The translations under genes and the position numbers were made by a program. A stretch of DNA of 64,000 nt from a virus (taxonomy: Duplodnaviria > Caudoviricetes): the IMG/VR virus record IMGVR_UViG_3300035685_000002, positions 1-64,000 of that record; one strand, given 5' to 3'. Shown in pieces: positions 117-63,585 of this stretch (position 1 is the first letter of the stretch; every line of letters starts with the position of its first letter). Below the pieces are notes generated by a model that was not told where the DNA came from, did not search any database, and saw only the letters and a program-made list of their open reading frames with translations.

Positions 117-217
117 AGAAGCTCTGTCCGGAACCAATTGAACTTTCCTGGTGGCTTGAATAGCTAGCAAAAGCCCCGCTAATTTGGCGGGGTTTTTTAA
201 TAAAGGTTTATTACCCA

Positions 218-730
218 TCAAAATCCTCGATATCTCACCCATGATTTCCATACGTTCACGACGGGTTTTCTGATACTCTCTGCATAGCGAACCGTGTGCC
301 AAGTACCTCCAGGTGTGCCGTTGAAGAGTGCTAGAACTTTGTCGGCGCGATCAACCATCCATCTATCCCTGCCCTTCATCATCTCGTTAACCCTCTGCTT
401 GCTGCACTTCGACCCAACCTCGTTGTAGACATAGCAAACTTTGTGAGCGCGATCAAGAATCTGGCAATATCGATTCCTGTCCTGTGTCTGCCAAGTCCGC
501 TCCTGCTCCTCAAACGGTACAGCGGCAATCAAAGGAATGCCCAATTCCAGAGAGGCGAGAGAAATAGCAGTATCCCAGCCGAGCGCCATTCCAGAGATAA
601 CTTTCTCTGGTTCTAGGGCTATTAGCGAGTTTTTCGCCAATGCTGTCATCCGGGGAAGTCCCGGTTGTTCGTACTGCTGCCAGGAACAGACTTTAGGGGG
701 ACGATGCCCGGTTGCGCAGATAATCATCAA
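218..730 (-). CDS. SLOG-family (YspA/DUF1273-like) protein
   Basis: Motifs TGHRP, ISGMALGWDT, AAVPF and GGTWHTVRYA are typical of YspA-like SLOG proteins. Confidence 0.8.
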   Translation of the reverse strand: MMIICATGHRPPKVCSWQQYEQPGLPRMTALAKNSLIALEPEKVISGMALGWDTAISLASLELGIPLIAAVPFEEQERTWQTQDRNRYCQILDRAHKVCYVYNEVGSKCSKQRVNEMMKGRDRWMVDRADKVLALFNGTPGGTWHTVRYAESIRKPVVNVWKSWVRYRGF

Positions 731-789
731 CTCTTAATTCTCTTATTTTGTGATAAAATAAGTATATCAAAATAAAGACGGAGAACCGT

Positions 790-1290
790 ATGGTCTTTTC
801 TAGTTCTTGGCGTTCAACCGAAAACTGCGATTGTGACGAAACCGACAGACTTCGAGAGGAAAATGAGCGCCTTTATCGACAAGAGAAGGAGCGTCGAGAG
901 GCGGTACTTCAAGAATCGAGAGAGCGAATAGAATCGAGTAGGCGTAGTGCTGATGATTGGCGCGAAGCTCTTGGCAAGCAAGCCAATCTGTATGGGCGTG
1001 AAGCTGATCTGTACCCATCTCCTGATGAGAATGGGATTGATGATTTTGCGATCGCGTCCGAAGCCTGCAAGAGGGCTTGCGAAATCTGGGATGAGCTGGC
1101 TTTGGCAAAGCAAGATGAAATTGCCGAACTGGAGGCTAGGCTTGTTAAATTGCGAGATTCTATTCGTTTAGGGACTTGCAATGAATTGCGCCAGATTTAT
1201 GAAGGTCACCCTGGTCAGGGTTACGTTGAGCAGTATCTCATAGATTCCCTGGAAGAAGGGGGAGATCCAGAGGACTGGTTGAACTGGTAG
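790..1290 (+). CDS. hypothetical acidic coiled-coil protein
   Basis: 166-aa ORF with a TGTGATAAAAT promoter-like motif and GGAG upstream and a hairpin downstream. Confidence 0.65.
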   Translation: MVFSSSWRSTENCDCDETDRLREENERLYRQEKERREAVLQESRERIESSRRSADDWREALGKQANLYGREADLYPSPDENGIDDFAIASEACKRACEIWDELALAKQDEIAELEARLVKLRDSIRLGTCNELRQIYEGHPGQGYVEQYLIDSLEEGGDPEDWLNW

Positions 1291-1418
1291 CCGATGCCAT
1301 ATAAAACACAAAAAACGTTCCGAATAAAATCGGAACGTTTTTTGTTGCTATTTGAAGGGAGTAGTCGCATGGATAAGCAAAAGCGGGGCGTACTTAAGCT
1401 AGTACGTCCCGCTTTTGA

Positions 1419-1670
1419 CTAGATACCTGTTACCCCTGCTTCTTCAAAGTCTTCCCAGTTCATATGGATTAACTTATCGAAGGGGATTTGGTTGATGATT
1501 TCTGCATTTCGCAGAGGCTCTCGCCAATCCATAAATGGACGGTCTGTCTGTAGCCTCCAGAATATAGTCCAATGTGGAAATTGGTAAGTATCGAAGACTT
1601 CCAGATTTGCCGGAATCGACATCCCGGCTTGTTGAGCTACTGACACCAACAGTTCTTTAGATGCAATCAT
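1419..1670 (-). CDS. hypothetical protein
   Basis: 83-aa ORF preceded by the conserved promoter-like motif (1691-1714, minus strand) and followed by a hairpin. Confidence 0.6.
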   Translation of the reverse strand: MIASKELLVSVAQQAGMSIPANLEVFDTYQFPHWTIFWRLQTDRPFMDWREPLRNAEIINQIPFDKLIHMNWEDFEEAGVTGI

Positions 1671-1809
1671 CGTAGTAAATGCTCTTTCTTTGTTTACATT
1701 ACTATTTTATCACAAAATGTGCTAGAATGTATATATACAAAGCAAGAGGTGGGAACAGCCCTGACAAACTCTCCCGCCTCTTGATCCCAACAAATTAAGG
1801 ACAACCAAA

Positions 1810-1947
1810 ATGATAAGACCAATAAGGGTAGTCTCGTCGGTATCGTTGATTATCTTGACAAGCCTCCCAGTTTTAGCAGAAAGCAGCCCTCCACCCGGCA
1901 GTTGCCGGAGAGAAGACAAGACTTGTGAACCGACGCCGAAGAAATAA
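1810..1947 (+). CDS. small secreted peptide precursor (45 aa; not in the ORF track)
   Basis: MIRPIRVVSSVSLIILTSLPVLA-ESSPPPGSCRREDKTCEPTPKK. AAGGA RBS at about 1797, Sec-type signal ending V-L-A, terminator-like hairpin at about 1955-1978. Confidence 0.6.
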   Translation: MIRPIRVVSSVSLIILTSLPVLAESSPPPGSCRREDKTCEPTPKK

Positions 1948-2121
1948 AACATCAAAGCCACCCACCGAGGTGGCTTTGCTATGATCAGTCCATGTAATAT
2001 AAGAATTTTTATCTGTGCGCCTTCGCACAGCGCCCCGCAGCTCACGGGGTATTTTTTTATTAAACCTTTATTATCTAACCATGTGATACAATACTAATCA
2101 CAAAACATTTATTGTGTAGCA

Positions 2122-3102
2122 ATGCGAATAGTATCATTATTCTCCGGTTGCGGAGGCTTAGATCTCGGCTTTAAGAATGCCGGATTCGACATAGTCTGGG
2201 CAAACGATAACGCTAAATCGGTGTGGCAGACTTACGAAGCGAATCACCCAGAAACGCAGTTTGACAAGCGATCGCTCCTCAACATTCCCTCCAACCAAAT
2301 CCCCAACTGCGTAGGAATCATCGGCGGACCCCCGTGCCAAAGCTGGAGCAGCGCTGGTAGCCGCAAGGGGATATCAGATAGCCGAGGCCGACTGTTCCAC
2401 GAGTACATCCGCGTACTCCGCGACAAGCAACCCTTATTCTTCCTAGCCGAGAACGTTTCCGGGATGCTGCACCGTCAGCACTCAGATGCCTTAGCTGAAA
2501 TAATCCGGGAGCTATCAGTTGGCTACAACGTGTCCTACAAGCTTCTTAATGCTGGAGACTATGGCGTCCCTCAAGACAGAGAACGTGTCATCTTTGTCGG
2601 ATTCCATCAAGACACTCAAATCCAGTTCGACTTTAACGACTTACAGAGAAGTGAGTCGGTTGTACTGAGAGATGCGATCGCCGATCTCCCCGACCCCATC
2701 CCATCCCCAAACAACAAAGCCACCGGGGCAGACATGAACCACGAGTATTTCACTGGTGGATTTTCGAGTATCTATATGTCCCGCAATAGGGTTAGAGGGT
2801 GGAGCGATCGCTCCTTCACGATCCAAGCCAGCGGCAGACACGCCCCGTTGCATCCCCAAGCCAAGCCAATGGTCAAGGTCGGAAAGGATGAGTTCATCTT
2901 TCATCCTGATAGCCCTTCTTGTCGCAGACTATCTATCCGGGAATGTGCCCGTATCCAAACCTTTCCTGACTCGTTTTCCTTTGAATACGACAACTTGAAC
3001 GACGGCTACAAGGCAGTTGGCAATGCCGTTCCGGTTACCTTTGCTCAAACTCTAGCAAGCTCCATTGCTGTCAAGTTAGCCGCATTGAACATCAATTTCT
3101 AA
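2122..3102 (+). CDS. DNA (cytosine-5) methyltransferase, M.HaeIII-like (probably GGCC)
   Basis: FSGCGG, GGPPCQSWS, ENV, QDRERV and GNAVP motifs. The TRD (NHEYFTGGFSSIYMSRNRVRGW..FTIQASGR..LHPQA) closely resembles M.HaeIII. Confidence 0.93.
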   Translation: MRIVSLFSGCGGLDLGFKNAGFDIVWANDNAKSVWQTYEANHPETQFDKRSLLNIPSNQIPNCVGIIGGPPCQSWSSAGSRKGISDSRGRLFHEYIRVLRDKQPLFFLAENVSGMLHRQHSDALAEIIRELSVGYNVSYKLLNAGDYGVPQDRERVIFVGFHQDTQIQFDFNDLQRSESVVLRDAIADLPDPIPSPNNKATGADMNHEYFTGGFSSIYMSRNRVRGWSDRSFTIQASGRHAPLHPQAKPMVKVGKDEFIFHPDSPSCRRLSIRECARIQTFPDSFSFEYDNLNDGYKAVGNAVPVTFAQTLASSIAVKLAALNINF

Positions 3103-3120
3103 TAAAGGTTTATTACCAAT

Positions 3121-3741: not shown

Positions 3742-3827
3742 TTCCTAATAAACCTTTATTAAAGCGAGCGAATTTAATTTAGAAATTGCTCGTTTTTTCA
3801 TGTCCAAAACCCCCAACTTGTATCAAA

Positions 3828-4930: not shown

Positions 4931-4987
4931 GATATTTCAAGACGCTATCTGTCGTCTTCATCCATCAAACATTTATTGTGGAAAATA

Positions 4988-6679
4988 ATGCAAATAGCCC
5001 TACTTGAAGGAGTTTCAACTCCACCTGGTCGCGTACAAACTTTCATCAACGAGCCGTATAAGGGTACCACGCCACACTCCTGTACCTTGATCGTCTACAA
5101 AAACGATATCTGGGATCTACTTCAGTTTTGCTCAAAGTCTCTCCGCTGGGGAGCTGGTGTAAAAGTCATCTTAGATGACTATGCTGACCCAACCCCAGTG
5201 GATTTCACCTGGGGTTATTATTTATCTCCAGACCATCCGGATTACAACTTGCTAGCAGCAGACCAGCGACACTACTTGGTAGATGACCTCGGTGGCTCCA
5301 CTTTGATCACTGTCGCTGATTCAATGGAAGAATCCACGCCATCAGCGGTGTCTATTGAAGAATCCTGGAGAGTGTTTATTGAGGCAGCGAGGAGGGGCGA
5401 TCGCATAGTCGTAGATCTTTCCAGCTTGCGTCCATCCGGCACCAAGAACGATAAAGGACTCGTTTCAACCGGTCCCATAGGTAAAGGCAAAAAAGACGAT
5501 CCAGACGCTGGGTCGTTTTTTGCTATATACCGTGATTTAGCCAAGTATTTGGGCAATGCAGACATCGGCTCTCTATTGCAATTACTTGGTACTATTAACG
5601 ACACTCTGCGGCGTGGTGGTGCCTACAAAGGAGGTATTATCACATCAGCTATGTACTGGCGCAATCCTCACTTCTCCGAATACCTAGCAGTCCCGGTCAC
5701 TTCTCTAGCTGGAGGGCATAAGAAGGGAGTTCGTGTTTGTTCAGCGATTTTGGGTAATAAACCTTTATTAAAAGACGTAGCTCGTTCCGCGACAGAAGAA
5801 GGCACCTTCCTTGCTAAAGTTCAAAATACGTCAATATACGAGAATGTGTGTCAAGGGCTTTTTCTCCCAGATCGTGGCACCTGTCTGATTTGGCGTCTCA
5901 ATATTGCCTTATGTCGAACGTTTGAGGAAATCGCCCCGGCAATGTGCAAGGTTACTGAGGAGCTTTGCAATTTGCATGTCAGCTGGAGGAAACAGGTGGG
6001 CGATCGCGCCAATCTCTTTGCCCCCCTAGAGCAGGATCGACAAATAGGCGTAGATATTCTGGGTCTAGCCAATGCCTTGGCTTACTGGGGTATCACCTAC
6101 ATGGATCTAACCCTAGCCATCGAGCGATTCATAGAGGGTCGGCATGGAGGGACTGAAGCTGATCGACTGGTATTCCACCTGGCGGACGCCTACCGCAAGA
6201 GTACTATCTTGGCAGATGAGTTTATGCGTGAGCGGGGACTTCCCTTGCTGGAACGTATCCACACGATAGAGCCGTCTCAGAACCACGCCTATCATTGCAA
6301 AGATCTCCGGGGTTTTACTACCGCTCGTTCCATCTTTGCCCCCTTTGGTCAGAAGGTGCGCCGAGTTTCCAATTCTCAGCGCAACATGGTGGTTAAGCAC
6401 GGGGCAGTAGAAACAGCTGCCGATGTTGGACCAACACTTCATCAGCATTTTTGTGAACAGTGGCAAGCCTTGATGGAATTGTGCGGCAGGGCGCATTCTA
6501 TAAGCTTTGATTCTTGGGAGGCAATTACTCCTGACTGGATTGAAGATTGGATGGCATCGCCCCTCCTCACTAAGTACTACACAGAACACACCCGGTACAA
6601 TCAGGAGTTTTTACGGAAACAGGCGATCGCTGCCTGTGACGTATCTCGCCCCGGTGAATGCCTAGCCTGTGCAGACTAA
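4988..6679 (+). CDS. nrdA: ribonucleotide reductase large subunit, divergent cyanophage-type class I
   Basis: DLSSLRPSG, LRRGG, ENVC..L.LP.RGTCL, DRQIG..ILGLAN, YY pair and C-terminal C..CxxC. A ferritin-like subunit lies nearby. Confidence 0.8.
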   Translation: MQIALLEGVSTPPGRVQTFINEPYKGTTPHSCTLIVYKNDIWDLLQFCSKSLRWGAGVKVILDDYADPTPVDFTWGYYLSPDHPDYNLLAADQRHYLVDDLGGSTLITVADSMEESTPSAVSIEESWRVFIEAARRGDRIVVDLSSLRPSGTKNDKGLVSTGPIGKGKKDDPDAGSFFAIYRDLAKYLGNADIGSLLQLLGTINDTLRRGGAYKGGIITSAMYWRNPHFSEYLAVPVTSLAGGHKKGVRVCSAILGNKPLLKDVARSATEEGTFLAKVQNTSIYENVCQGLFLPDRGTCLIWRLNIALCRTFEEIAPAMCKVTEELCNLHVSWRKQVGDRANLFAPLEQDRQIGVDILGLANALAYWGITYMDLTLAIERFIEGRHGGTEADRLVFHLADAYRKSTILADEFMRERGLPLLERIHTIEPSQNHAYHCKDLRGFTTARSIFAPFGQKVRRVSNSQRNMVVKHGAVETAADVGPTLHQHFCEQWQALMELCGRAHSISFDSWEAITPDWIEDWMASPLLTKYYTEHTRYNQEFLRKQAIAACDVSRPGECLACAD

Positions 6680-6691
6680 TAAAGGTTTATT

Positions 6692-7162
6692 ATGCTCACT
6701 CGAATTGCCAAATATCTCGAACAGCGGGGTAAGAAGCGGGTAATCCTCGACCGGGAAGAGAAAGACGTTTATTTAGAACGGTACTACCTACTGTTCGGAA
6801 ATGCAGCTGGTGATTCCAAGCGCCCATCTTGGTTCCCGGTCAACATCATGCTTCATCATCTGTGCGCTTCTGACCCTGAGGGATTGCATGATCACCCGTG
6901 GTGGAATATCAGTATTGTGCTGAAGGGCGGGTATTGGGAACATCTGCCGACTGGGAAAGTTTGGCGATCACCAGGAACTTTTATCTTCCGTCGCGCTAAA
7001 TCTTTGCACCGCCTGGAACTCGATGCTGATAAGGCAGGCACTGACACCTGGTCATTGTTCATTGTCGGACCCCGTGTACGCGATTGGGGTTTTATCAATA
7101 AACTTGGGCAGTGGGTTCAATGGCAGGAATACATCCAATCTATTAAGGGATTGAAAAAGTGA
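6692..7162 (+). CDS. cupin-fold phage protein
   Basis: YLERYY, LHDHPW, LKGGYWE, HRLEL and WSLF..GPR.RDWGF pattern. Confidence 0.7.
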   Translation: MLTRIAKYLEQRGKKRVILDREEKDVYLERYYLLFGNAAGDSKRPSWFPVNIMLHHLCASDPEGLHDHPWWNISIVLKGGYWEHLPTGKVWRSPGTFIFRRAKSLHRLELDADKAGTDTWSLFIVGPRVRDWGFINKLGQWVQWQEYIQSIKGLKK

Positions 7163-8688: not shown

Positions 8689-8723
8689 AAAAGCCCCCTA
8701 ATAAACCTTTATTAGGGGGCTTT
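8689..8723. terminator. bidirectional intrinsic terminator whose core is the 16-bp palindrome
   Basis: AAAAGCCCCC-TAATAAACCTTTATTA-GGGGGCTTT between convergent genes. Confidence 0.7.
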
Positions 8724-12708: not shown

Positions 12709-13070
12709 AGGGCGATCGCTTTCTGATTGTTATCGCCCTCTCGCTGATAAGCAGCATCTCAATTTTATCTTGAATTAGCTCCAAGGCTCCCTACTGGGGG
12801 CTTTTTTAATAAAGGTTTATTAGACTCGCCAGGAAGACTGCGGTAGCTGTATCCCTTATAGATTCAGGTGCGGAAATTCCCGCACCTGACAACCATGCGG
12901 CTTTCAGGCGAGGCGTCAGCCCTGTCGATCTGCGCTTATTACAGTAGTTCTACTTCTTTTAGATGCGATCGCGGCACATCCAATAGAGCATAACCATTAA
13001 CGCGTCTATTACAAGCCAGAATATTCCCCAGGTCAATGAGTCTTTCTTGATAATCGATAATAAACCTTTA

Positions 13071-13670
13071 TTACTCATCCTCATCTACCGCAATCAAGTC
13101 GTCGGCAATATTTACATCTTCAATCTCAGTGTCATCTTCATTGCCTTGCGATCGCCTATCCACAGCATCGTACTCATACGTTCGCAACCTAGCAATGAGT
13201 TCGTTCATATTGATGTCAATTCCTAGATGCTTCATCAGAATTCCCAGAGCTTTGCTCTTCTGGTGCATCTTGACGGATAGGACGCTGCTGCCACGGCTTC
13301 GGGTTTCGGATACTTCAGCGATCGCAGCCATCCAGTTATCATCAATATCCTCAGAGTTTTTGACCTTGAGCTGATTATCCTTCCACTCGGATACATCCCC
13401 GACTGTCGCGAAGGCAAGTCTGGCAACTTCTTGGAGGACTCGGTCTGCGGTGATTTCTAGGCGTTGTGATCGCCTATCCTGCATTTCCTGGATATAAGCT
13501 CTTACGTCTTCGCGAGTCAGCAGCTTTGTCCCGGCAGCTGAGGCAGATGTCCTATTCTTGGAGTTAAATCCCGACGCCATATAGGCATCAGCTATATTTC
13601 CACAGATTACGTATTTCTCTGCAAAGAGCCTGTGGCGAGGATTCATCCCCTGTCTGACTGACTCCGTCAT
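13071..13670 (-). CDS. terS: terminase small subunit
   Basis: F...Y...N...AY..SG, GTKLL..V..YI, ITADRVLQEVARLAF and K.KAL..L.KHLG, typical of Terminase_2. Confidence 0.9.
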   Translation of the reverse strand: MTESVRQGMNPRHRLFAEKYVICGNIADAYMASGFNSKNRTSASAAGTKLLTREDVRAYIQEMQDRRSQRLEITADRVLQEVARLAFATVGDVSEWKDNQLKVKNSEDIDDNWMAAIAEVSETRSRGSSVLSVKMHQKSKALGILMKHLGIDINMNELIARLRTYEYDAVDRRSQGNEDDTEIEDVNIADDLIAVDEDE

Positions 13671-13794
13671 GGATTTATCTTTGATTCCTAATCACTTTTG
13701 AAAACCTAGTTGAGCTTAACAATTGGGCGATCGCTCCTTTAATAAACCTTTATTGGAATGTGATAAAATATCAAAAACAAATAGGATTAATGCA

Positions 13795-14484: not shown

Positions 14485-14552
14485 AGTTTTTGTGTGATCG
14501 CTTCCTGAGCAAGAAGTGATCGCACTTTTTAATAAACCTTTAATGGAGAACT

Positions 14553-15523: not shown

Positions 15524-15626
15524 TTTTGGAATCCCTGATAGAGAAAGCGCCCCATACTGGAGGGCGCTTTTTAATAAACTTTTATTAAATGTGATAAAAT
15601 AAAATAGTAAACAAATCAAATGTCTT

Positions 15627-16583: not shown

Positions 16584-16774
16584 AACGCAAGCACACCTTA
16601 ATAAACCTTTATTAGCAAAAACGCCGAGAAACTTGTATTTTCCCGGCGTTTTTTGATACCCCACGAACTTGCGTCGTTCTAGCTCTTACCCTACTGCTCA
16701 GGAATAAAACCCCGTCTTTTTGGACACCTGATAACGAGTTTGCGTCGTTTCAGCTCTTGCATTTTGCGAAAAGT

Positions 16775-17769: not shown

Positions 17770-17787
17770 AATAAACCTTTATTAACA

Positions 17788-18881: not shown

Positions 18882-18907
18882 ATCCCTAATAAACCTTTAT
18901 TAAAGTA

Positions 18908-21029: not shown

Positions 21030-21125
21030 ATGGATACAGCTTATATCTATGGTGTCTTGTCCGGAATAGTGGCAACTTGTGCTATCGCCTTCTATCTTGT
21101 CAAAAATAATAAACCTTTAATATAA
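21030..21125 (+). CDS. 31-aa single-transmembrane peptide (not in the ORF track)
   Basis: MDTAYIYGVLSGIVATCAIAFYLVKNNKPLI*; GGAG upstream, terminator downstream. Confidence 0.45.
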   Translation: MDTAYIYGVLSGIVATCAIAFYLVKNNKPLI

Positions 21126-23364: not shown

Positions 23365-23424
23365 AATCAGCTCAGGTAGAGTATTCTGCCTGAGCTGATT
23401 TCTTAGTTTTAATAAACCTTTATT

Positions 23425-26400: not shown

Positions 26401-26497
26401 TAAACCTTTATTATAAACACCTCTATCAAAAGTTAGACTGAGAGTAACTTAAACTCTCCACCCCACAAGGCGTTCGGATTCCGAGCGCCTATCTTTT

Positions 26498-44584: not shown

Positions 44585-44596
44585 TAAAGGTTTATT

Positions 44597-46742: not shown

Positions 46743-46754
46743 TAAAGGTTTATT

Positions 46755-47737: not shown

Positions 47738-48696
47738 TGTTTTTTGTTATCTACGAGGCTCAGTCAGGGCAGCTATTAAATCCTAAGTTGCAGTTCCGCT
47801 GGGAGGGGTTTCAGATAGTCCCAAGTGAGAAGGGAGCTGTTGTGGATATTTCGGCTGCTGATGACAGGCAGTTATTAGGACTCTCTCCAGATGAAGTCAG
47901 GGCAATTCTGCCTACGATTAATGGGGCTATTACGTTTACCATCAAGTCACCACATCCCGATCCGAGGATACATATCGGCTGCTGGTTGATTGGTAATTTG
48001 CGAAAGTACTTAATCGATTTTGCGCTACCCTCAGCATTGCTTAGACCCGTGATTCTGCAAAGACGAGTAGAGCCGATGTCTGACCGAGTTAGAATTCCCG
48101 CGCCGGGGGGAGTGATACCGGAACAAATCGAGGCTGGGGTTGAGGTTATGCAGATACCTAGTGGGAAACATATTAAAGGTTTATTAAGGGGGAGTGAGAT
48201 CTTTTTAAATAGTCCGATGCAAGACGATGAGGGATATTTGGTTTTTAAGTACACGCCTGTTTTGGAAAAAAATAATCAAATCTCTCAAGTGCCTTGTTTT
48301 ATGGTGAGGGGTGGTAAGAATATAAACCATCGAAGGATAAACGCAAAAGAGTATTTACCTGGGCTGAAATGGGAAGTGTTGTCTCAGGTAGATGTTGAAG
48401 CAGAGATTATGATAGTTGGCGCGTCAGAAACGGATGCGCAAAAGATTGCAGAATCTGCCGTAGGATTTTTGGGTTCTAGAGGATACATAGATGCTCCAGC
48501 TTTTGATTTACAGATCGCCGTTTCGGTACTAGGAACGATTCAAGAAGGTCCGATGCGGGTGGGAGAGTCGCCAGGGATTGAGGGCTTGTCGGCGCTGACA
48601 TTTCGGGTTAGGTTGTTGAACTTGATTCAGAGTACGACCGCTGAGAGGGTTGATCTGAGGACGGACTGGGAGATTCAGGCTAGATCGAATGTTTAG
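47737..48696 (+). CDS. hypothetical, probably structural (beta-rich) protein
   Basis: 319-aa ORF coupled (TAATG) within the tail region. Confidence 0.55.
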   Translation: MFFVIYEAQSGQLLNPKLQFRWEGFQIVPSEKGAVVDISAADDRQLLGLSPDEVRAILPTINGAITFTIKSPHPDPRIHIGCWLIGNLRKYLIDFALPSALLRPVILQRRVEPMSDRVRIPAPGGVIPEQIEAGVEVMQIPSGKHIKGLLRGSEIFLNSPMQDDEGYLVFKYTPVLEKNNQISQVPCFMVRGGKNINHRRINAKEYLPGLKWEVLSQVDVEAEIMIVGASETDAQKIAESAVGFLGSRGYIDAPAFDLQIAVSVLGTIQEGPMRVGESPGIEGLSALTFRVRLLNLIQSTTAERVDLRTDWEIQARSNV

Positions 48697-49395: not shown

Positions 49396-49449
49396 CAAAA
49401 AGCCCCGCAGTTTATCTACGGGGCTTTTGCTTTTTAATAAAGGTTTATT

Positions 49450-49659
49450 ATGCGGCTAATTGATGTTTACAAACCAGGCACTAAGGTTGTTAATAAATTT
49501 GACGGGAGAGTTGTTTTTGTTAGTTCGTGCGATCGCTGCCAATACGGTTATTGGACAGTCATCAAAGGCAAAGATTTCGCGGTTGCCAGTACCCTGGATT
49601 CTCTCATTTTTGCAGGTTGGAAAGCTCAAAGAATTAATTCTCTAGCTGCTAGAATTTAG
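49450..49659 (+). CDS. hypothetical protein
   Basis: Its ATG overlaps the end of the palindrome at 49435-49450. Confidence 0.45.
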   Translation: MRLIDVYKPGTKVVNKFDGRVVFVSSCDRCQYGYWTVIKGKDFAVASTLDSLIFAGWKAQRINSLAARI

Positions 49660-51117: not shown

Positions 51118-51203
51118 CTTAATTGTTTACTGTATTATTTTATCACGTTTAAGAGTTATATTAAACCTTTATTAAGAAGGCGACCTACTGAGGTCGCCTT
51201 CAA

Positions 51204-52203: not shown

Positions 52204-55200
52204 TTAAGCTGCAATCAAAGCAGGCACAACCACCGTTCCCAGATGCTGCACCTCTGCATAGAATCCCGCATCAATTAGATCCTTAGCTACGCGCTCCGGC
52301 TGAACAACCCAGAATCGATGATGGAACCGCACTAGTCGTTCACCGAGTAATGAAGCAACTGGAGTGGTAGGGGCATCAGGTTTGTGATACTCATCGATTA
52401 TTGCCTCAATACGCGCCATACTCTCGATTTGTGCCTGCGCCGGGGTTAGATGGATAACCAACATCCTGGCATTCTCCAGGGGCATGGCATGGTCAATAAC
52501 AATCTGTCTTTCATCGTTGTTAACGCCGAGCTTGCCCCAAAGAATCAACTTCTCCCGCTCCTTTAATAAACCTTTAGTACGCTTATAGGTCGATGGGAAC
52601 ACAACTGCTTTGCAAGATGCAGAAGTGTCCTCCATTCCCTCGATAATCATCATCTCGTCTCCCTTGCGGGTAAGAATCGGTTTCAACTGAGTCAGGAGAG
52701 CAATTACCCTCACTCGCTTGTCATTAGGATGTGACCAGCGTACAACGTAATCGTCACTCCCCTCAAACCCAATCTCCTCCTTCTCGACAACCTCAGCTAG
52801 GGGAATCGGACTGTAAATGTTGATGATTTTTTTAGCATTTTGCAAAGGGTGTCCCGATGCATAAAACTGGAGAAACTGTTTCTCCAGGGAGAGTTTCTCG
52901 TCAAGGGAGTAGTCTGGAAACGACTTTATAGGTACGGCGCTCCAGTCTATCTGCACCTCCTCCCCGCCAAGCATATCGAGGAGAGATAGTTGACCGGACG
53001 CCTTGTCCTTCTCCTTGCTCTTGAGGGTTCCCGATGCCCAGCCCAGGACACTCTCTAGGTTCTCTGCCAGCTTTCGCCTGTTGAGATCTATGCTGTCAAA
53101 TGCCCCACTGTAGATCAGGGCCTCAACAGATCTCTTGTTGAGGTTGGAATTTAATTCCCTTACTCGGTAGCAGAAATCTTGGAATGACTCGAAGGGGGAT
53201 GAGGCGCGGGCTTCTAGGATGGACTGGATGATTGTGTCTCCTAGGTTGGCGATCGCGCTCAACCCAAATCGAATCCCATTACCATCCGGGAAAAACTCCT
53301 CTTGAGAGCGGTTAACGTCGGGTGGGTAGATTGGGATTTTCATGGCGATCGCGGCAGCTAGGTGTTGCTGAAGCTTATCTTTCTTCCCTTGATCATCTGT
53401 TAGAAGTGCCGCCATAAACTCTACAGGGTAGTGAGTCTTGATGTAAGCAGTTTGGTATGAAATATAGCCATATGCCATAGAGTGTGACATATTGAAGCAA
53501 TACTCGCTAAATTTCTTTATCGCCTCGAATAGATTTCTTGCCACAGACTCTGGAACACCATTATTGATACAGCCTGAAATGAATTTATCTTCCTGAAGCT
53601 CCATGTCTTTCAAGCTCTTCTTTCCCATAGAGCGCCTTGCAGAGTCTGCCTGTCCAGAAGTGTAAGAAGCTAAAACCTGGAAGATTTTCATAATCTGCTC
53701 TTGATACACCATTTGTCCGTAGGTGTATCCAAGAATCGGTTCTAGCCGAGGGTCTACATAGGGTTCAATTTCTCCCCTGTTCTTGCCGGCAATGAATTTA
53801 GGGATGAATCCATTGTCCAAAGGTCCAGGACGATAGAGGGCCAGGATTGACGAAATATCGTCAATGCAAACAGGGGCAATCTCTCGAATTGTGGAACGCA
53901 TACCAGAGCTTTCCATCTGAAAGATACCGTCCATACCTCCTGTTCGGTAGAACTGATAAACCGCTGGATCATCCATTGGAAATTTATCAGGATCTAGATC
54001 TATTCCTTTGGTTTGTTTCACCAATTTAGAAGCCCTATTGATGGTAGTCAGGTTTTTGAGTCCTAGAATGTCCATCTTAATAAGACCCAGGTATTCCAAA
54101 TCTTCCATTGGGTACTGAGTGACGATAGATCCATCTCTGGCAATCATTAATGGAACTATCGTATCTAGCGGCTCTGCCGAAATAACAACACCGGCTGCAT
54201 GGACTCCTGATGTTTTGTTGACTCCCTCCAATCTTCGGCTCAGATCTATGAGATTTTTAAATCCTGAATCGCTCTCATACTGTTGCTTAAACTCAATAAC
54301 CGGAGATTCGTCAGATATCATCTTGTTCAGCTTTTCAGGCTTGCCCCGAACAACTGGTATTTGTTTCGTATAGTTTTCAACCTCCTTATAAGGAAAATTC
54401 AAAACTCGACCGCTATCTTTGATGACAGCCTTGGAGGTTAGTCTGTTGAACGTGATGATTTGGGCAACGCGATCGCTCCCATACTTCTCCACAAAATACT
54501 GAATGACTTCTGGTCTTCTCAAAACACAGAAATCGGTGTCTATATCCGGGTAAGACTTGCGCTCTTCGTTCAAGAAGCGACTAAATAGTAACCCATGATG
54601 AATAGGGTCAATGTTGGTAATCTTCATTGAATACGATACGAGAGATCCAGCGGCTGAACCCCTGCCAGGTCCAACTGGGATACCCTTAGAACGCGCCCAA
54701 CGGATTGCATCTCCTACGATGAGAAAATACTGGCACAACCCTTTTCCAGATAGAACACCTATTTCATACTCCAGCTGATCTTTGTATTTCTGGTGCAACT
54801 CTTTTGGTACTTTTTTGAGTCGCTCCTTCAAACCTTCTTTTGCCCAGGTACGCATATGAGTCTCAGGTGTCTCTCCTTCTGGTAGGGGAAACTTTGGCTC
54901 AGTTGGTTCGGAGAAAAGATCGTAGTCGTCAGTGATGCGATCGCTCACCTTCACTGTATTAGCGATCGCCCGTTCTACCACATCAGGACTCAGATGGTCT
55001 CGAAACAGCAGCCGCATCTCCTCAACGGATTTGAGATACTCAGTCCCGGTGTAGCGCATCCGTTTCTCATCGCTTACCAATTTTCCGGTTTGGATACACA
55101 GCAGGGCGTCATGAGCTTCCACGTCGTAGCAGGAGATGAAGTGGGAGTCATTCGTGGCGATAATCTCAATACCCAGTTCTTCGCCCATCTTCACTAGGAC

Positions 55201-55770
55201 TGGGTTTACTACCCTCTCCTCTGTTTGTCCGTGATCCTGAATTTCTAAGTAGAACCTATCCCCGAATACTCGTTTGTACCATCTGGTGACTTCGTAAGCC
55301 ACATCTAACTTTCCAGCCAAAATAGCCTGGGGAATTTCTCCGCCCAGGCAGGCACTGGTTACGATCAACCCTTCGTTATATTTTTCTAATAAACCTTTAT
55401 TAACGCAGGGTCTGGCAAAAATGCCCTTACCCAGGAAACCCTTGAGATGGGAAATGGTCGTCAGTTTGACCAAATTCTGGTAGCCCTTCTTGTCCATCGC
55501 CAGGACAACTTGATGGTACTTGCGGTGACGGGTCGTTTTATCCTCGATGTCGCCGTTAATGACGTACATCTCATTGCCGATGATTGCCTTGATGCCCTTC
55601 TTGGCGCAGAGCTTAATGAGCTGGATTGCGCCGTGCATCACTCCGTGATCTGTGATGGCGATCGCCTTTATTCCTAGCTCCACGCAATAGTCAAGCAGCT
55701 TGTCGATCTGGCTAGCACCATCCAGGAACGAGTAGTCAGTGTGAATATGTAAAGGTACGAACTGGGTCAT
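52204..55770 (-). CDS. dnaE: DNA polymerase III alpha subunit (single polypeptide, no intein)
   Basis: PHP domain (LHIHTDYS, AITDHG, TNDSH), GPGRGSAAGS, PDIDTD, HAAG, KMDILGL, EYCFNMSH and OB fold. Confidence 0.97.
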   Translation of the reverse strand: MTQFVPLHIHTDYSFLDGASQIDKLLDYCVELGIKAIAITDHGVMHGAIQLIKLCAKKGIKAIIGNEMYVINGDIEDKTTRHRKYHQVVLAMDKKGYQNLVKLTTISHLKGFLGKGIFARPCVNKGLLEKYNEGLIVTSACLGGEIPQAILAGKLDVAYEVTRWYKRVFGDRFYLEIQDHGQTEERVVNPVLVKMGEELGIEIIATNDSHFISCYDVEAHDALLCIQTGKLVSDEKRMRYTGTEYLKSVEEMRLLFRDHLSPDVVERAIANTVKVSDRITDDYDLFSEPTEPKFPLPEGETPETHMRTWAKEGLKERLKKVPKELHQKYKDQLEYEIGVLSGKGLCQYFLIVGDAIRWARSKGIPVGPGRGSAAGSLVSYSMKITNIDPIHHGLLFSRFLNEERKSYPDIDTDFCVLRRPEVIQYFVEKYGSDRVAQIITFNRLTSKAVIKDSGRVLNFPYKEVENYTKQIPVVRGKPEKLNKMISDESPVIEFKQQYESDSGFKNLIDLSRRLEGVNKTSGVHAAGVVISAEPLDTIVPLMIARDGSIVTQYPMEDLEYLGLIKMDILGLKNLTTINRASKLVKQTKGIDLDPDKFPMDDPAVYQFYRTGGMDGIFQMESSGMRSTIREIAPVCIDDISSILALYRPGPLDNGFIPKFIAGKNRGEIEPYVDPRLEPILGYTYGQMVYQEQIMKIFQVLASYTSGQADSARRSMGKKSLKDMELQEDKFISGCINNGVPESVARNLFEAIKKFSEYCFNMSHSMAYGYISYQTAYIKTHYPVEFMAALLTDDQGKKDKLQQHLAAAIAMKIPIYPPDVNRSQEEFFPDGNGIRFGLSAIANLGDTIIQSILEARASSPFESFQDFCYRVRELNSNLNKRSVEALIYSGAFDSIDLNRRKLAENLESVLGWASGTLKSKEKDKASGQLSLLDMLGGEEVQIDWSAVPIKSFPDYSLDEKLSLEKQFLQFYASGHPLQNAKKIINIYSPIPLAEVVEKEEIGFEGSDDYVVRWSHPNDKRVRVIALLTQLKPILTRKGDEMMIIEGMEDTSASCKAVVFPSTYKRTKGLLKEREKLILWGKLGVNNDERQIVIDHAMPLENARMLVIHLTPAQAQIESMARIEAIIDEYHKPDAPTTPVASLLGERLVRFHHRFWVVQPERVAKDLIDAGFYAEVQHLGTVVVPALIAA

Positions 55771-57421: not shown

Positions 57422-57508
57422 AGCTAATAAACCTTTAATAGCGTTTACTGTTTAATTATATCATAATGTGATAAAATATACTTGTAAACACGAAACAGGT
57501 ATTTACTC

Positions 57509-58176: not shown

Positions 58177-58839
58177 CTATCTGCGCGTCTTTTTAATCAA
58201 ATCCCTGTTAGCTGTATAGAATCCCTGCGAGCTGGGATCGGCAAACCACTTCCCCTGTTCCTTACCGCTAGTAAGAGAGCCTCCGATCCTACTCAATGCA
58301 AGCGCCCGCACTCTATCATCATCAATTCTTCCGTATAACTCGGTCATAATGCTGCTGCGATGCATTAACCTGTCGTCGTTCTCTTTTAGGATGAGGGAAA
58401 TAGCATCCACCTTCTTCATCCCGCTAAATCTAGGCAAAAAGTCAATCTCAACGTTACCGTCATCACTCATTCGGACAGTAGCGAGGGGAGTTTCTTCTCC
58501 CTCGAAATCTAGAACAATATCCTCGTCACTCTCGCCTTCGGTATTCGGCTCCTCTTCAGTTGGTACATCGAGAGGAATCGCCTGCTGCTGGTAGTGCCCG
58601 TTGCTACTGGGAGGTGCGGCGGGAGTTGCAGAAGTCAATCCAAGTTGGAGAGTGCCCTGCACTAGACCCTCCGCCTGACTCCTTAAACTCTCTGCGACTG
58701 ACAGTTTCGATTCAACTTCTTCTAGCCGCTGTCTCAGCTCTTCTGCTTCTTTGCGAAGTGAGTCAGATAAATCAGAATAATAAACCTTTAATATATTCGC
58801 AGCGTCAAGTGGATTGTTTAGTATAACTTCTTGTTGCAT
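58177..58839 (-). CDS. coiled-coil protein with a probable C-terminal winged helix
   Basis: N-terminal coiled coil, acidic linker, then AISLILKE..MH..I..ELYG..L..GK..G.W....G.Y. Confidence 0.6.
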   Translation of the reverse strand: MQQEVILNNPLDAANILKVYYSDLSDSLRKEAEELRQRLEEVESKLSVAESLRSQAEGLVQGTLQLGLTSATPAAPPSSNGHYQQQAIPLDVPTEEEPNTEGESDEDIVLDFEGEETPLATVRMSDDGNVEIDFLPRFSGMKKVDAISLILKENDDRLMHRSSIMTELYGRIDDDRVRALALSRIGGSLTSGKEQGKWFADPSSQGFYTANRDLIKKTRR

Positions 58840-58874
58840 TTCAGTGTATAAAGCTATAGTTAAATGATACTCAT

Positions 58875-61584: not shown

Positions 61585-61862
61585 ATATTTGTTATCTGTG
61601 TTTACAATATTATTTTATCACACTATATACCGTATTAATACTAATTGCTTTTGCGAATTACTGAGGGTTGATAAATATGGCACTTTTTGAGTTACGATTA
61701 ACTTGAGGCGAAGAACCGTGCTAGCAGCGAGGCGATTCGTGGCTCAGGTATTTGGGAGAACCTATCCTAGGGCAACCTCTGTTTACCGATGCTAGCGAAC
61801 AAAGAAGCGGCGTAGTCCCTACAAACTGCGCCGCTCTTGTTTTGTTTAATAAAGGTTTATTA

Positions 61863-62291
61863 CTAGAACGAACTCTCTACGGTTTCAGTGCTCCAGACGA
61901 ATCGCCCGCCCCGGAACTTGAGGCTGGACTGGATAGAGACAAGCGATCGCTTCTTCTCCAAAGAATCCATTAGACCAGGAAAAATCTGCTGGCAGTAAGC
62001 GAGAGTCTTTTGCAGCTCTGTCTGCCGTTGCTCCTCCCACCCTTCCAGGAGTTTGCTGCGACCGGGGATTTTTGCCATGTCGTGGAGGGAAAGTTTATGG
62101 CGATCGCTTCCCTTGACTTCAACAGAGATATCGCTAGTCTTCCGTTGGAAGAACACCACAACTTCCCCCAGTCCATCCGCTTGAGAGTGTTCCAAGGCTT
62201 GAAGTATGAACGGCTCTAGGGCTGAAATAATATCTTTGGGTTTCGAGCTGTTACCTTTGCGGTAACCAACAAATTGAGAGCTTACGGTCAT
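61863..62291 (-). CDS. hypothetical protein
   Basis: Directly downstream of the gp25-like gene; ends at a palindrome copy. Confidence 0.55.
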   Translation of the reverse strand: MTVSSQFVGYRKGNSSKPKDIISALEPFILQALEHSQADGLGEVVVFFQRKTSDISVEVKGSDRHKLSLHDMAKIPGRSKLLEGWEEQRQTELQKTLAYCQQIFPGLMDSLEKKRSLVSIQSSLKFRGGRFVWSTETVESSF

Positions 62292-62293
62292 TG

Positions 62294-62773
62294 TCAGAAT
62301 CTGTGTAGGGGGTGTTCGTCTAGATAGATTTCATCAAGGAAGGAGCCAACGTCACCATTCCAGATTGCTCCCTGGTAGGAGTAGAAGGGGAAGGTCAGCA
62401 GATGGCGATCCGGTTCGCCTTTTGGGGTGAAGTAGATTTCTGTTCTTAGAGCATTCTGGTAGTTTGTGTATTCTGACACCCGGACAAATAGCTGATCTAA
62501 CCCCGCCACCCATCGCTTGATCTCCGACTCTGCGTGATAGACCCAGTATTCTGGCGCGTAGTTCGACAGTGGCTCGAAGAGATCTACAGCGATACCGAAA
62601 TCTGGATGCAAGGGGTCTTCACCTTTTTTGATCAAGCACACGGAAATGATGGCATGGCTGATCGTCCGCACTCCGGACACTATGTTCATGTTCCCGTATT
62701 CGTCATAAGGAAGCCAGAGTGACCAAGCATTGCCATAAAATCCGTAGAGATTGGAGGCGGAGAGTAGGGGCAT
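62294..62773 (-). CDS. baseplate wedge/sheath initiator, GPW/gp25-like
   Basis: I.HAI..V..IKKGE.PLHPDFG..DLFEP and I.RW match the gp25 signature, which implies a contractile tail. Confidence 0.72.
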   Translation of the reverse strand: MPLLSASNLYGFYGNAWSLWLPYDEYGNMNIVSGVRTISHAIISVCLIKKGEDPLHPDFGIAVDLFEPLSNYAPEYWVYHAESEIKRWVAGLDQLFVRVSEYTNYQNALRTEIYFTPKGEPDRHLLTFPFYSYQGAIWNGDVGSFLDEIYLDEHPLHRF

Positions 62774-62876
62774 GAAAAAACCGACCAAGGGTCGGCTCTT
62801 TGATAAGGAGCTTATTTCTCAATAGTATTAAGGTTGGACAGGTGGTAATAAACCTTTATTAACAACCCACAAAAGT

Positions 62877-63176
62877 ATGGATAATACATCCTGGTTTTTG
62901 GTTAGCATTCGAGCTACCTGGGGCGAGTACGAGCAAGTTCAACAGATTCGAGAAGAAAATAGGCGATACCCAAAATTGGCTTATTTTGAGGGAGTACTTG
63001 AATTGCAAGGCAGCCTAGCTTCATTTACGCCTGAAATTCTTTCATTTATTGATCAGCTACTAATTACACCCGATAGTCTAGTAAGTGCTATGATTACCAG
63101 TGATTCTCTGGAAGAATTTCTGGACTATGGTCAAACGAAGCAATTGCTTGATTTAACGTTACAAAACAACCTCTAA
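62877..63176 (+). CDS. hypothetical protein
   Basis: 99-aa ORF after a palindrome copy. Confidence 0.5.
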   Translation: MDNTSWFLVSIRATWGEYEQVQQIREENRRYPKLAYFEGVLELQGSLASFTPEILSFIDQLLITPDSLVSAMITSDSLEEFLDYGQTKQLLDLTLQNNL

Positions 63177-63201
63177 ACCAAAGGTTGTTTTGTTTGATTA
63201 C

Positions 63202-63459
63202 CTAGATGTTTTTCTCTAGATGCTTTTTGTAAACTCCTGCAACATCCTCTTCAGTTAATCCGAGAATTTCACCAATCCTTGCTATGGATTCAATTCGGTT
63301 TGAGTCTAGATAGTTTTTCTGTGCCTCCTCAATTTCTTTTGTATCCATGCCGAGAATTTCTCCAGCTTCTTTTAATCTACCAAGAGGTGTTTCAGACGTT
63401 AATTCGGCTTCGGTAATTAGGTTTATGCTATCTACCACTTTTTTGTGAAATTCTTCCAT
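63202..63459 (-). CDS. hypothetical protein with a two-copy GEILG repeat
   Basis: AGEILGMD.. and IGEILGLT..; promoter-like motif upstream. Confidence 0.55.
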   Translation of the reverse strand: MEEFHKKVVDSINLITEAELTSETPLGRLKEAGEILGMDTKEIEEAQKNYLDSNRIESIARIGEILGLTEEDVAGVYKKHLEKNI

Positions 63460-63585
63460 TATTTACTCGTTTTTTAGATATCAATACTACTATTTTATCC
63501 CAAAAATACATATATCAATCGAGCGATCGGTAATAAACCTTTATTAGTTGCCAAAGCAAAAGCTCCCCAACTGGGGAGCCTCTGA

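Follow-up and report, generated by a model that had tools for sequence, protein, structure and literature searches.

A phage-specific 16-bp palindrome recurs along a soil-crust cyanophage genome as a probable docking array for a dimeric protein

The window analysed here is a 64,000-nt stretch from an uncultured soil-crust cyanophage whose whole virus record (G000) spans 103,060 bp; this record and that of a related phage, G001, are both incomplete, at 88% and 63%, respectively. The window carries DNA methylase, RNR-like, small-terminase-like, EndoU and dnaE genes together with an ORF of 6028 aa, which a sequence-only reading had called a tape measure gene and in which a Pfam scan finds a DnaJ J-domain only. 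Scattered over these genes and the gaps between them is the motif TAATAAASSTTTATTA (TAATAAA-GG/CC-TTTATTA), present in 20 exact copies in the window vs 0 in 100 dinucleotide shuffles and, at ≤2 mismatches, at 36 distinct positions from 198 to 63531 (0.04 expected), which bears out the initial count of about 36 near-perfect copies. In the whole record, exact copies number 34 and TAWTAAAGGTTTAWTA occurs 59 times at ≤1 mismatch, with a mean gap of 1,767 bp; the proposed check by codon-preserving shuffle (n = 200) confirms the enrichment, the shuffled sequences averaging 0.43 copies of TAWTAAAGGTTTAWTA and never exceeding 3. Every genomic copy of the 10-mer TAAAGGTTTA falls within the full motif. 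The consensus form is TA-W-TAAA-GG-TTTA-W-TA, i.e., two 7-bp half-sites round a centre that is, as first described, nearly always GG or CC (50 of 52 perfect-arm cases); since GG and CC are one word on opposite strands, they record orientation rather than two variants.

Gene junctions hold 46 of the 59 sites, while only 8.2% of the genome is non-coding; about a fifth of the sites lie within genes. At 6677, 44582 and 46740, the motif opens with a TAA stop codon and closes with the A that begins the following ATG, in agreement with the earlier claim that the site is the entire intergenic region at these three places. The junction copies in the window are as follows.

198..213, plus: exact copy; T-tract of terminator 174-199 extends into it
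2058..2073, minus: 1-mismatch copy (A14) between terminator 2032-2050 and promoter TGTGATACAAT at 2082
3100..3115, plus: exact copy; forms the TAA stop of C5-methylase gene 2122-3102, start 3121 5 nt on
3746..3761, minus: exact copy, 4 nt past the stop of MT-A70 gene 3121-3741
6677..6692, plus: exact copy; entire intergenic region, stop of 4976-6679 plus A of ATG 6692
8699..8714, minus: exact copy; tip of a 15-pair two-way terminator hairpin (8690-8723), convergent genes on either side
12807..12822, plus: exact copy; convergent junction, immediately past terminator 12788-12800
13058..13073, minus: exact copy; provides the stop of small-terminase-like gene 13071-13670 (minus)
13740..13755, minus: 1-mismatch copy at the -35 position, ending 3 nt upstream of promoter TGTGATAAAAT at 13759
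14530..14545, minus: 2-mismatch copy past terminator 14492-14525; start 14553 7 nt on
15572..15587, minus: 1-mismatch copy (centre AG) between terminator 15546-15575 and promoter 15590
16599..16614, minus: exact copy; convergent junction, 15 nt past the stop of 16017-16583
17769..17784, minus: exact copy; adjoins ATG of EndoU gene 17119-17769 (minus), start 17788 3 nt on; divergent pair
18887..18902, minus: exact copy; stop 18881 5 nt before, start 18908 5 nt after
21107..21122, minus: 1-mismatch copy (T3); convergent junction, terminator 21128-21154 6 nt away
23410..23425, minus: exact copy; CC orientation on the coding strand, adjoins ATG 23425
26398..26413, minus: exact copy; provides the stop of 26197-26400
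44582..44597, plus: exact copy; entire intergenic region, stop of the 6028-aa ORF plus A of ATG 44597
46740..46755, plus: exact copy; entire intergenic region, stop of 46206-46742 plus A of ATG 46755
49435..49450, plus: exact copy; follows a terminator T-tract, adjoins ATG 49450
51159..51174, minus: A14 variant, 11 nt upstream of a minus-strand promoter at 51137
57425..57440, minus: T3 variant; divergent junction, 3 nt from the start of 57137-57421 (minus), upstream of promoter 57467
61847..61862, plus: exact copy; adjoins the stop of 61863-62291 (minus); orthologous site in G001, centre flipped
62846..62861, minus: exact copy; divergent junction upstream of 62294-62788 (minus); orthologous site in G001, centre flipped
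63531..63546, minus: exact copy between terminator 63555-63579 and a minus-strand promoter at 63492

A strict terminator lies within 30 bp of 11 of the 59 sites (2.4 expected). Of the 34 stereotyped extended -10 promoters, 13 have a neighbouring site at a distance of up to about 60 bp; all of these promoter-linked sites are upstream, and they often end 1-8 nt before TGTG. Convergent junctions, which contain no promoters, carry a site as often (39%) as tandem (35%) or divergent (26%) ones, and the spacing between site and -10 element ranges from 2 nt to 16 nt or more, so that control of initiation cannot be the main role.

The 16-mer does not fold as RNA (MFE 0) and scarcely does so as DNA (MFE -0.7 kcal/mol), and mixed-arm variants show no folding whatever. 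Positions 3 and 14 do not covary, A and T combining there as expected if independent in both phages; base counts are equal in the two arms, which are statistically alike, one third of all sites have mismatched arms, and the GG/CC orientation relative to genes is random (31:28). These features are compatible with recognition of duplex DNA by a protein of two-fold symmetry, and the earlier suggestion of a dimeric-protein site is thus upheld, indirectly, as to a duplex with two equivalent half-sites, although the binder itself was not found. They leave a very small chance for a nucleic-acid structure or translation signal, whether an RNA hairpin (terminator or RNase site), a single-stranded-DNA hairpin or cruciform (N4-type promoter or priming signal), or a stop-restart cassette of TAA-TAA-AGG-spacer-ATG. 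This explanation does poorly: the word is palindromic, one copy tips a real terminator stem (8690-8723), and in the GG orientation AGG stands 6 nt before ATG at 6677, 44582, 46740 and 49435, but the CC orientation adjoins ATG too (23410, 74919), many sites occupy the stretch from a terminator to the following promoter, which is little transcribed, and others sit in convergent junctions and within genes.

Eleven copies lie well inside window ORFs, the number and genes (RNR, the giant ORF, dnaE and others) being those first listed.

5755..5770, minus: exact copy in RNR-like gene 4976-6679; reads N-K-P-L-L
28546..28561, plus: T3 variant in the 6028-aa ORF; reads I-K-G-L-L
30526..30541, minus: A14 variant in the 6028-aa ORF; reads I-K-P-L-L
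32041..32056, plus: T3 variant in the 6028-aa ORF; reads I-K-G-L-L
39232..39247, minus: A14 variant in the 6028-aa ORF; reads I-K-P-L-L
39610..39625, minus: A14 variant in the 6028-aa ORF; reads I-K-P-L-L
40786..40801, plus: T3 variant in the 6028-aa ORF; reads I-K-G-L-L
48171..48186, plus: T3 variant in gene 47737-48696; reads I-K-G-L-L
52564..52579, minus: 1-mismatch copy (C3) in dnaE 52204-55770 (minus); reads T-K-G-L-L
55387..55402, minus: exact copy in dnaE; reads N-K-G-L-L
58778..58793, minus: T3 variant in an uncertain ORF call, 58177-58893 (minus); sole copy in the other open frame (I-L-K-V-Y-Y)

Ten of these 11 share the frame xxT-AAT/ATT-AAA-GGT/CCT-TTA-TTA, read N/I/T-K-G/P-L-L. A occupies position 3 in 89% of junction half-sites but in only 54% of intragenic ones, a difference in keeping with coding constraint. 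Across the record, genes of at least 500 aa hold 10 of the 13 intragenic copies (P = 0.01), intragenic copies lower the sum of squared gaps (P = 0.0024), and the junctions used are more evenly chosen than random (P = 0.009); with the giant ORF collapsed, evenness gives P = 0.056, and gene lengths account for part of it. Because intragenic copies come by substitution, mostly in long genes where they fill gaps, the spacing of copies appears to be under selection.

Comparison with G001 points to point substitution as the origin of the intragenic copies. The site at 99382 (D-I-K-P-L-I-E) aligns without an indel to E-L-R-P-L-V-E in G001, and in gene 89769-92399 a site matches the G001 orthologue at all of 19 nt, in surrounding DNA of about 65% identity. 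A REP- or MITE-type miniature mobile element, copying itself to new places, also does poorly and is the least probable explanation that we consider. Many near-identical copies and an IS200/IS605-type TnpB gene (59425-60726) would suit it, but one intragenic site arose by substitutions with no indel, reading frames would break on insertion of 16 bp, neither additional sequence conservation nor a target duplication marks the flanks, the IS neither contains nor adjoins a copy, and no TnpA or RAYT protein is seen.

About 43 sites are present in G001, at the same gene junctions. Over 12 orthologous places, identity is 89% in the arms and 35% in the ±30 bp flanks; the GG/CC centre is flipped at 6-8 of these 12, GC and CG intermediates are almost never observed, and the two lineages differ in their preference for A or T at position 3. 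Enrichment, the persistence of sites where the flanks have diverged, and a lack of the motif in the likely host family together lend indirect support to the earlier view of selection at the DNA level. The flips and the position-3 difference might also be expected if the 16-mer, often with a terminator and promoter, served as a micro-homology signpost for cassette exchange between phages, with copies kept uniform by gene conversion, since conversion or inversion flips a centre more easily than two separate substitutions. About 20 virion genes common to the two phages are interleaved with unrelated small genes, site-bounded slots carry different genes in each, and one 290-aa gene occupies different slots. 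We regard this as distinctly unlikely: homology between the phages tails off towards gene ends instead of breaking sharply at the motif, a 16-base word offers very little length for homologous exchange, the joints apparent in metagenome contigs have short sides and are explicable by the repeats themselves, and gap-filling and the copies in dnaE, RNR and the giant ORF are left unexplained. The sequence-only reading's suggestion of a recombination site or HIP1 analogue thus retains weak hints only. HIP1 (GCGATCGC) is a palindromic 8-mer that is highly iterated throughout cyanobacterial host genomes and has 137 copies in this phage (1.6 expected); both words are highly iterated palindromes, but the 16-mer is absent from host-type genomes and concentrated at junctions. 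The analogous repeats of Cluster O mycobacteriophages are seldom at rearrangement points (PMC4351075).

The motif is phage-specific. Five genomes of Coleofasciculaceae, the likely host family (39.5 Mb), contain 1 match, and 401 other cyanobacterial genomes contain 36, at most 3 per genome and about as many as a reversed control word, i.e., chance level in all 406; absence from the host was one of the checks first proposed. Pfam or PHROG scans of about 110 ORFs reveal no HTH, RHH, ParB or HU protein, the sole HTH_3 signals in G000 falling below the family cut-off, which agrees with the earlier remark that no gene in the window explains the motif. The proteins exclusive to the two phages with the motif are for the most part highly acidic (pI 4.1-4.7), and one of them has a confident fold with no PDB match. 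The lack of a detected phage DNA-binding protein, together with early promoters of the host sigma-70 extended -10 type, could suggest that the phage recruits or titrates a cyanobacterial regulator or nucleoid protein through many perfect-consensus sites. This is highly unlikely, given chance-level occurrence of the exact word in the 406 genomes and a half-site preference that differs between two phages probably sharing a host group.

Absence from the likely host family means that the word could distinguish phage from host DNA. A dimer or site-loaded clamp might therefore compact the phage DNA, organise it into domains or mark it as 'self', with replication, packaging or sparing from a phage nuclease that degrades host DNA as possible ends and transcription not the target. 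Even spacing, filled-in long genes, random orientation, independence of junction type and promoters, and a phage-encoded SNase-type nuclease and RecD2 helicase are in keeping with such an array. It is nonetheless unlikely, as no ParB, HU or other architectural protein is detected and the preference for junctions, terminator T-tracts and -35 regions is not required by it, although free space alone could explain that preference.

We infer that the sites probably form a protein-docking array on duplex DNA with a putative dimeric binder, and, more tentatively, that the job of this array is to block or silence transcription. The best explanation overall, to which we assign a probability of about 0.5, is an array of dimer-read duplex sites acting as a transcription block or silencer between gene cassettes. 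The two equivalent half-sites and fixed GG/CC centre would be read by a predicted two-fold symmetric protein, and selection would maintain one copy per roughly 1-4 kb over the whole chromosome. Junctions would be used first because the arms cost nothing there, serving as TAA stops or adjoining ATG, and long genes would gain copies via point substitution in the single frame that tolerates the motif well. Bound protein may form a two-way block, or a limited-reach silencer, that backs up terminators, occupies -35 regions at roughly one in three of the stereotyped early promoters and keeps long late genes quiet until it is removed. Against this, roadblocks in dnaE, RNR and the giant ORF would need lifting for expression.

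Such action would resemble that of stoperators, or of KorB on OB sites, minus the orientation and a detectable ParB. In Cluster A mycobacteriophages (L5, Bxb1), stoperators are asymmetric, oriented with transcription and serve the lysogenic repressor of temperate phages, one phage protein being bound and blocking elongating RNA polymerase (PMC4351075). The cyanophage array is similar in having dozens of copies of one short site in short intergenic gaps genome-wide, but its site is symmetric and unoriented, and no repressor or tyrosine integrase is found in this phage, which weighs against the stoperator-like repressor network first proposed. KorB, a ParB-family CTPase, loads at palindromic OB on plasmid RK2, slides up to about 1.5 kb and silences promoters (McLean et al. 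2025, PMC11790492), a reach that would make 1-4 kb spacing meaningful. The cyanophage replicon is likewise dotted with a palindromic site, at and off promoters; however, RK2 has 12 sites vs 59 in 103 kb, and neither ParB_N nor HTH_ParB is detected in either phage record, so a parS-like site, also first suggested, finds no support. PeSL elements of T4-type phages are promoter plus stem-loop cassettes that flank small variable genes and are proposed to mediate the shuffling of modules (PMC2839356, PMC4122927). The order terminator, palindrome, stereotyped promoter recurs in a like manner round small variable cyanophage genes, but the 16-mer is a separate element, also found without promoter or terminator, between virion genes and inside genes.

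The closest published analogue is the 17-bp dyad repeat TGTTCGG-NNN-CCGAACA of Cluster O mycobacteriophages (Corndog and relatives), for which a dimeric binder is predicted and the function is unknown (Cresawn et al. 2015, PMC4351075). Of 34 repeats in Corndog, 14 are intergenic, 10 fall in coding regions, and the other 10, close to gene 5' ends, may be intergenic (PMC4351075). Both arrays have 7-bp inverted arms round a short, asymmetric, near-fixed centre (TTT/AAA there, GG/CC here) and more than 30 genome-spread copies, with centre orientation unrelated to transcription, most sites off promoters and no integrase or parAB. Sequence, host phylum and phage lineage are unrelated, and the cyanophage motif differs in being AT-rich, with arms that double as stop codons or adjoin start codons. 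To the picture drawn for Cluster O (PMC4351075), the cyanophage array adds evidence that copies fill gaps in long genes, arise by substitution, are associated with terminators and have flipped centres at orthologous sites.

We find that the palindrome, a 16-mer word (TAATAAAGGTTTATTA) whose 2-bp centre is flanked by 7-bp arms, occurs in the window as 20 exact copies and as 36 copies at ≤2 mismatches, against 0 and 0.04 expected, in line with the roughly 36 near-perfect copies counted in the sequence-only reading. The whole record, G000 (linear, 103,060 bp, a tailed phage estimated to be 88% complete), holds 34 exact and 59 near copies, and its TAAAGGTTTA 10-mers fall within the full word TA-W-TAAA-GG-TTTA-W-TA in 57/57 cases. 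A codon-preserving shuffle that keeps the proteins and the per-gene codon usage yields 0.43 sites against the 59 observed, an enrichment of about 140-fold. Gene junctions (8.2% of the genome) carry 46 of the sites, a site being present at 26% of divergent, 39% of convergent and 35% of tandem junctions, so that the three types are used about equally, and the other 13 lie well inside genes. One arm gives a TAA stop codon at 11 sites and a start codon lies ≤10 nt away at 13, the ATG being abutted by the GG orientation at 6677, 44582, 46740 and 49435 and by the CC orientation at 23410 and 74919. That eleven window copies lie inside ORFs, that they are read mostly as (I/N/T)-K-(G/P)-L-L, and that the motif is the whole spacer at three junctions had all been noted correctly at the outset.

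The source of the DNA is a biocrust metagenome, and the genes identified in G000 comprise a small-terminase-like gene, a dnaE-type polymerase, an RNR-like gene, a C5 methylase, an MT-A70 methylase, RNase HII, dUTPase and ThyX, together with the following.

Window 17119-17769, minus strand: EndoU-type nuclease gene, its start codon abutted by the palindrome, followed by a HEAT-repeat gene (region 16775-17769)
Window 26498-44584: 6028-aa ORF, the putative tape measure gene
Window 59425-60726: IS200/IS605-type TnpB (OrfB_IS605 and a Cas12f-like TNB domain), an insertion sequence with no internal palindrome
G000 64790-65290: SNase-type (staphylococcal-nuclease-type) gene, adjoined by a palindrome
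G000 66545-68548: large terminase (TerL)

The TnpB shares 81-87% identity with copies in Coleofasciculaceae, Allocoleopsis and Microcoleus genomes and is the best clue to the host which, given this likeness and the biocrust source, is probably a filamentous biocrust cyanobacterium. The sole Pfam match in the 6028-aa ORF is a DnaJ J-domain at about residues 3773-3833, and some stretches show 28-40% identity to ORFs of four distant TerL relatives (G407-G410). The cyanobacterial repeat HIP1 (GCGATCGC) is present in 137 copies in G000 and in 102 copies in G001, a 107-kb relative from IMG/VR, against about 1.6 expected, and both phages therefore carry a host-type iterated palindrome besides their own. 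The 16-mer itself is absent from the likely host family above chance, as the sequence-only reading would predict for a phage signal: five Coleofasciculaceae genomes (39.5 Mb) contain 1 match, and 401 further cyanobacterial genomes contain 36, with a maximum of three per genome, about as many as for a reversed control word. The exact word gives single chance matches only among the matches listed for IMG/VR, and the literature searched holds no description of the motif.

Few relatives are found. The 746-aa protein and TerL find only G001 in IMG/VR, and a 540-aa protein from the virion region finds none there; TerL finds no relatives in GTDB genomes and, in JGI metagenome contigs, only relatives at ≤49% identity, none with the motif. 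TerL homologues at 87% and 60% identity (P0002, P0003) are present in a large protein collection. The distant TerL relatives G407-G410 have no comparable palindrome. One of them, G410 (IMGVR_UViG_3300005673_000003, loci L173-L180; 148.7 kb, with direct terminal repeats), has a 12-mer of its own, AATCAATC[AG]ATT, in 103 copies that are strand-oriented in blocks and often stand about 5-10 nt ahead of a GGAG-type ribosome-binding site, an oriented, start-associated repeat that differs in kind from the palindrome. Conservation is accordingly judged on one close relative, G001 (loci L121-L126; classed as a provirus by IMG/VR), which shares about 20 virion genes with G000 at 57-87% amino-acid identity, with unrelated small genes interleaved. 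A second, small palindrome, TTTCGCAAATTGCAAAA, is also repeated in G001, about 7 times.

G001 carries about 43 sites, many of them at junctions orthologous to those of G000. Over 12 orthologous places, arm identity is 89% and that of the 30-bp flanks on each side 35%, near random for their composition; the site in the gene at 89769-92399 and its counterpart in the G001 orthologue agree over 19 nt without a difference, amid DNA that is about 65% identical. This retention among randomised flanks, with the excess over the shuffle, gives indirect support to the selection at the DNA level proposed initially. The intragenic site at 99382 (D-I-K-P-L-I-E) aligns without a gap to E-L-R-P-L-V-E of G001, differing by substitutions only; from this single case we conclude that intragenic sites are written by protein-changing substitutions and not by insertion, and a REP/MITE-like mobile palindrome does poorly on the same case. 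Position 3 is A in 54% of intragenic half-sites versus 89% of junction half-sites, since an A-to-T change there turns Asn into Ile, and such a departure is what a trade-off between a DNA signal and coding would produce. The array is thus real, strongly selected and phage-specific.

The sites act, as far as folding and base composition tell, as duplex DNA. The 16-mer has a minimum free energy of 0 as RNA and of -0.7 kcal/mol as DNA, and no folding at all results for variants whose arms differ. In a hairpin, positions 3 and 14 would be paired, and G000 favours A3/T14 and G001 T3/A14, yet they do not covary in either phage, the matched and mixed forms occurring at the frequencies of independent arms. 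An intrinsic terminator or structured RNA element is not supported by these values, and hairpin and translational stop-restart readings do poorly. Base counts are alike in the GG-side and CC-side arms; the orientation of the centre is random with respect to gene strand (31 same and 28 opposite in G000, 19 versus 24 in G001), and a runs test on it is not significant. These features point to two equivalent half-sites and a two-fold symmetric protein, which fits the dimeric binder predicted earlier, and we put the probability that the palindromes form a protein-docking array on duplex DNA at roughly three in four.

The placement of the sites is more even than chance. When the 13 intragenic copies are placed at random in coding DNA, the sum of squared gaps is larger in 99.8% of trials (P=0.0024); 10/13 of these copies are in genes of at least 500 aa (P=0.01), and the choice of junctions is more even than random at P=0.009, or at P=0.056 with the giant ORF collapsed. 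Taken together, enrichment, absence from the likely host family, retention of sites, origin by substitution and the filling of gaps indicate that the spacing itself appears to be selected, and the reduction of uneven gaps and the even junction choice would suit a function of limited reach along the DNA.

A second repeat, a stereotyped extended -10 promoter-like element (TGTGATAAAAT, with GTAAACA about 7 nt further on), is present in 34 copies about 30-40 nt ahead of the starts of small genes, and G001 has the same element (ATTTTATCAC, 24 copies).

Promoter elements in the window: 749, 1704 (minus), 2082, 9235 (minus), 13759, 15590, 15979, 48733, 51137 (minus), 51705 (minus), 56283 (minus), 57467, 61612 (minus), 63492 (minus)
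Promoter elements beyond the window: 20 more, up to 98505

A palindrome lies just upstream of 13/34 of these promoters and downstream of 0, its end often 1-8 nt before the TGTG at a distance that varies. Terminator T-tracts often lead directly into the motif; a strict terminator is found ≤30 bp from 11/59 sites, versus 2.4 expected, and the two-way terminator stem at 8690-8723 has a palindrome copy as its tip. The elements thus often follow one another as terminator, palindrome and promoter, and sites in this layout sit in little-transcribed DNA. We tentatively favour, at somewhat short of even odds overall, a role in blocking transcription two ways or silencing it at short range, because this accords with the terminator and -35 contexts and with sites being needed within long genes: the array would shield the many single-gene cassettes from one another and hold long genes silent. 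An array that organises the phage chromosome or marks it as self would fit the spacing and the phage specificity as well as the block or silencer does; we regard it as rather unlikely.

The centre between perfect arms is GG/CC in 84/91 cases across both phages, with palindromic options near nil (one CG), and it is flipped at 6-8/12 of the sites orthologous between G000 and G001. Such flips are unlikely to stem from two independent transversions, whose intermediates are never seen; more plausibly the site was inverted, or converted from a copy paired in opposite register, and this would account for the lineage-wide position 3 preference too. The flips would suit a role of the sites in exchanging cassettes, the recombination reading proposed at first, as would the variable slots between sites, which hold different genes in G000 and G001. 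The intragenic sites do not fit such a role, however, and we consider cassette exchange very unlikely. The two phages, with about 70% nucleotide identity, are too distant for exchange endpoints to be placed at or away from the motif; their alignments lose similarity towards gene ends and show no abrupt break at it. Loose ends and short-sided joints that accumulate at palindromes and promoters in contigs of three soil or biocrust runs are not counted as breakpoints because the repeats themselves or contigs of other organisms can explain them.

Scanning about 110 ORFs against Pfam and PHROG reveals no DNA-binding family, consistent with the earlier remark that no gene in the window explains the palindrome. 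Neither G000 nor G001 has an HU domain, and HTH_3 signals in G000 are sub-threshold only. Proteins common to the motif-bearing phages only are a RecD2-type helicase and several small, mostly very acidic proteins. The proteins that bear on the search are as follows.

G000 65372-65827 (L127:1372-1827), minus strand: 151-aa acidic protein (pI 4.1), shared with G001 only
G000 68545-69165 (L127:4548-5165), minus strand: 206-aa protein with a response-regulator receiver domain, its C-terminal ~85 aa without assignment
G000 83835-86039: RecD2-type helicase, common to both motif-bearing phages only
G001 105563-106276: 237-aa HTH_3 protein

The 151-aa protein belongs to a cluster of >1,200 metagenome representatives with no Pfam family, and a palindrome stands at the gene's own promoter in both phages, the order palindrome, promoter, gene being kept in G001. 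It is predicted with high confidence (AlphaFold pLDDT 97), yet because it is acidic and the model has no fold or sequence match in the PDB, it seems unconvincing as a DNA binder. The HTH_3 protein of G001 has no PDB relative, the receiver-domain protein has no counterpart found in G001, a 142-aa basic protein has no homologues beyond its own cluster, and two Atlas look-ups return no named family.

Among known systems, stoperators of Cluster A mycobacteriophages are asymmetric, oriented and tied to lysogeny, in temperate phages with a repressor and an integrase, whereas the sites described here have symmetric arms and random orientation and neither G000 nor G001 (88% and 63% complete) has a match to the tyrosine integrase family PF00589; the stoperator-like network first suggested is not supported. 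The parS-like alternative fares no better, as a six-frame search of both records gives no match to ParB_N or HTH_ParB (PF02195, PF17762), a search that may miss a very divergent or split form or a gene in the missing 12% of G000. KorB, acting from its OB sites, provides a mechanism that reaches about 1.5 kb (PMC11790492); that reach is KorB's, and its defining ParB domain is the one sought and not found in G000 and G001. Quite unlikely, in our estimate, is a reading in which a DNA-tracking protein of a new family (not ParB, and of no known fold) loads or stops at the sites; with a reach of about 2 kb it would have to cover the whole chromosome, marking self or silencing in both directions, and inter-copy conversion would account for the uniformity of the sites and the GG/CC flips. 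The terminator-promoter context of the G000 sites resembles that of PeSL cassettes (PMC2839356, PMC4122927).

Of published cases, the 17-bp repeat of Cluster O mycobacteriophages comes closest (PMC4351075); it was described by 2015 at the latest and has no assigned function, and the G000 array is of the same kind. The Cluster O repeat has 7-bp arms and a nearly fixed asymmetric centre without meaningful orientation, its 34 copies comprise 14 intergenic, 10 near gene 5' ends and 10 within coding regions, and a dimeric binder is predicted in phages that have neither an integrase nor parAB (PMC4351075). G000 likewise has more than 30 copies (34 exact, 59 near) of two inverted ~7-bp arms around a short spacer; the centre is oriented without regard to transcription direction in G000 and G001; copies lie both between (46) and within (13) genes, most of them off promoters, with 13 near the 34 stereotyped promoters; and the sites are conserved in a related phage, here the one relative G001.

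To the genome-wide palindrome arrays of lytic-looking phages the present case contributes a cyanophage whose signatures are unusually clear, and its apparently selected spacing points to a function that extends only a limited distance along DNA. The binder, if found, could show by what means such phages keep dozens of single-gene cassettes insulated or silent, or mark their own DNA, and site and protein would make a compact orthogonal pair as tools in cyanobacteria.
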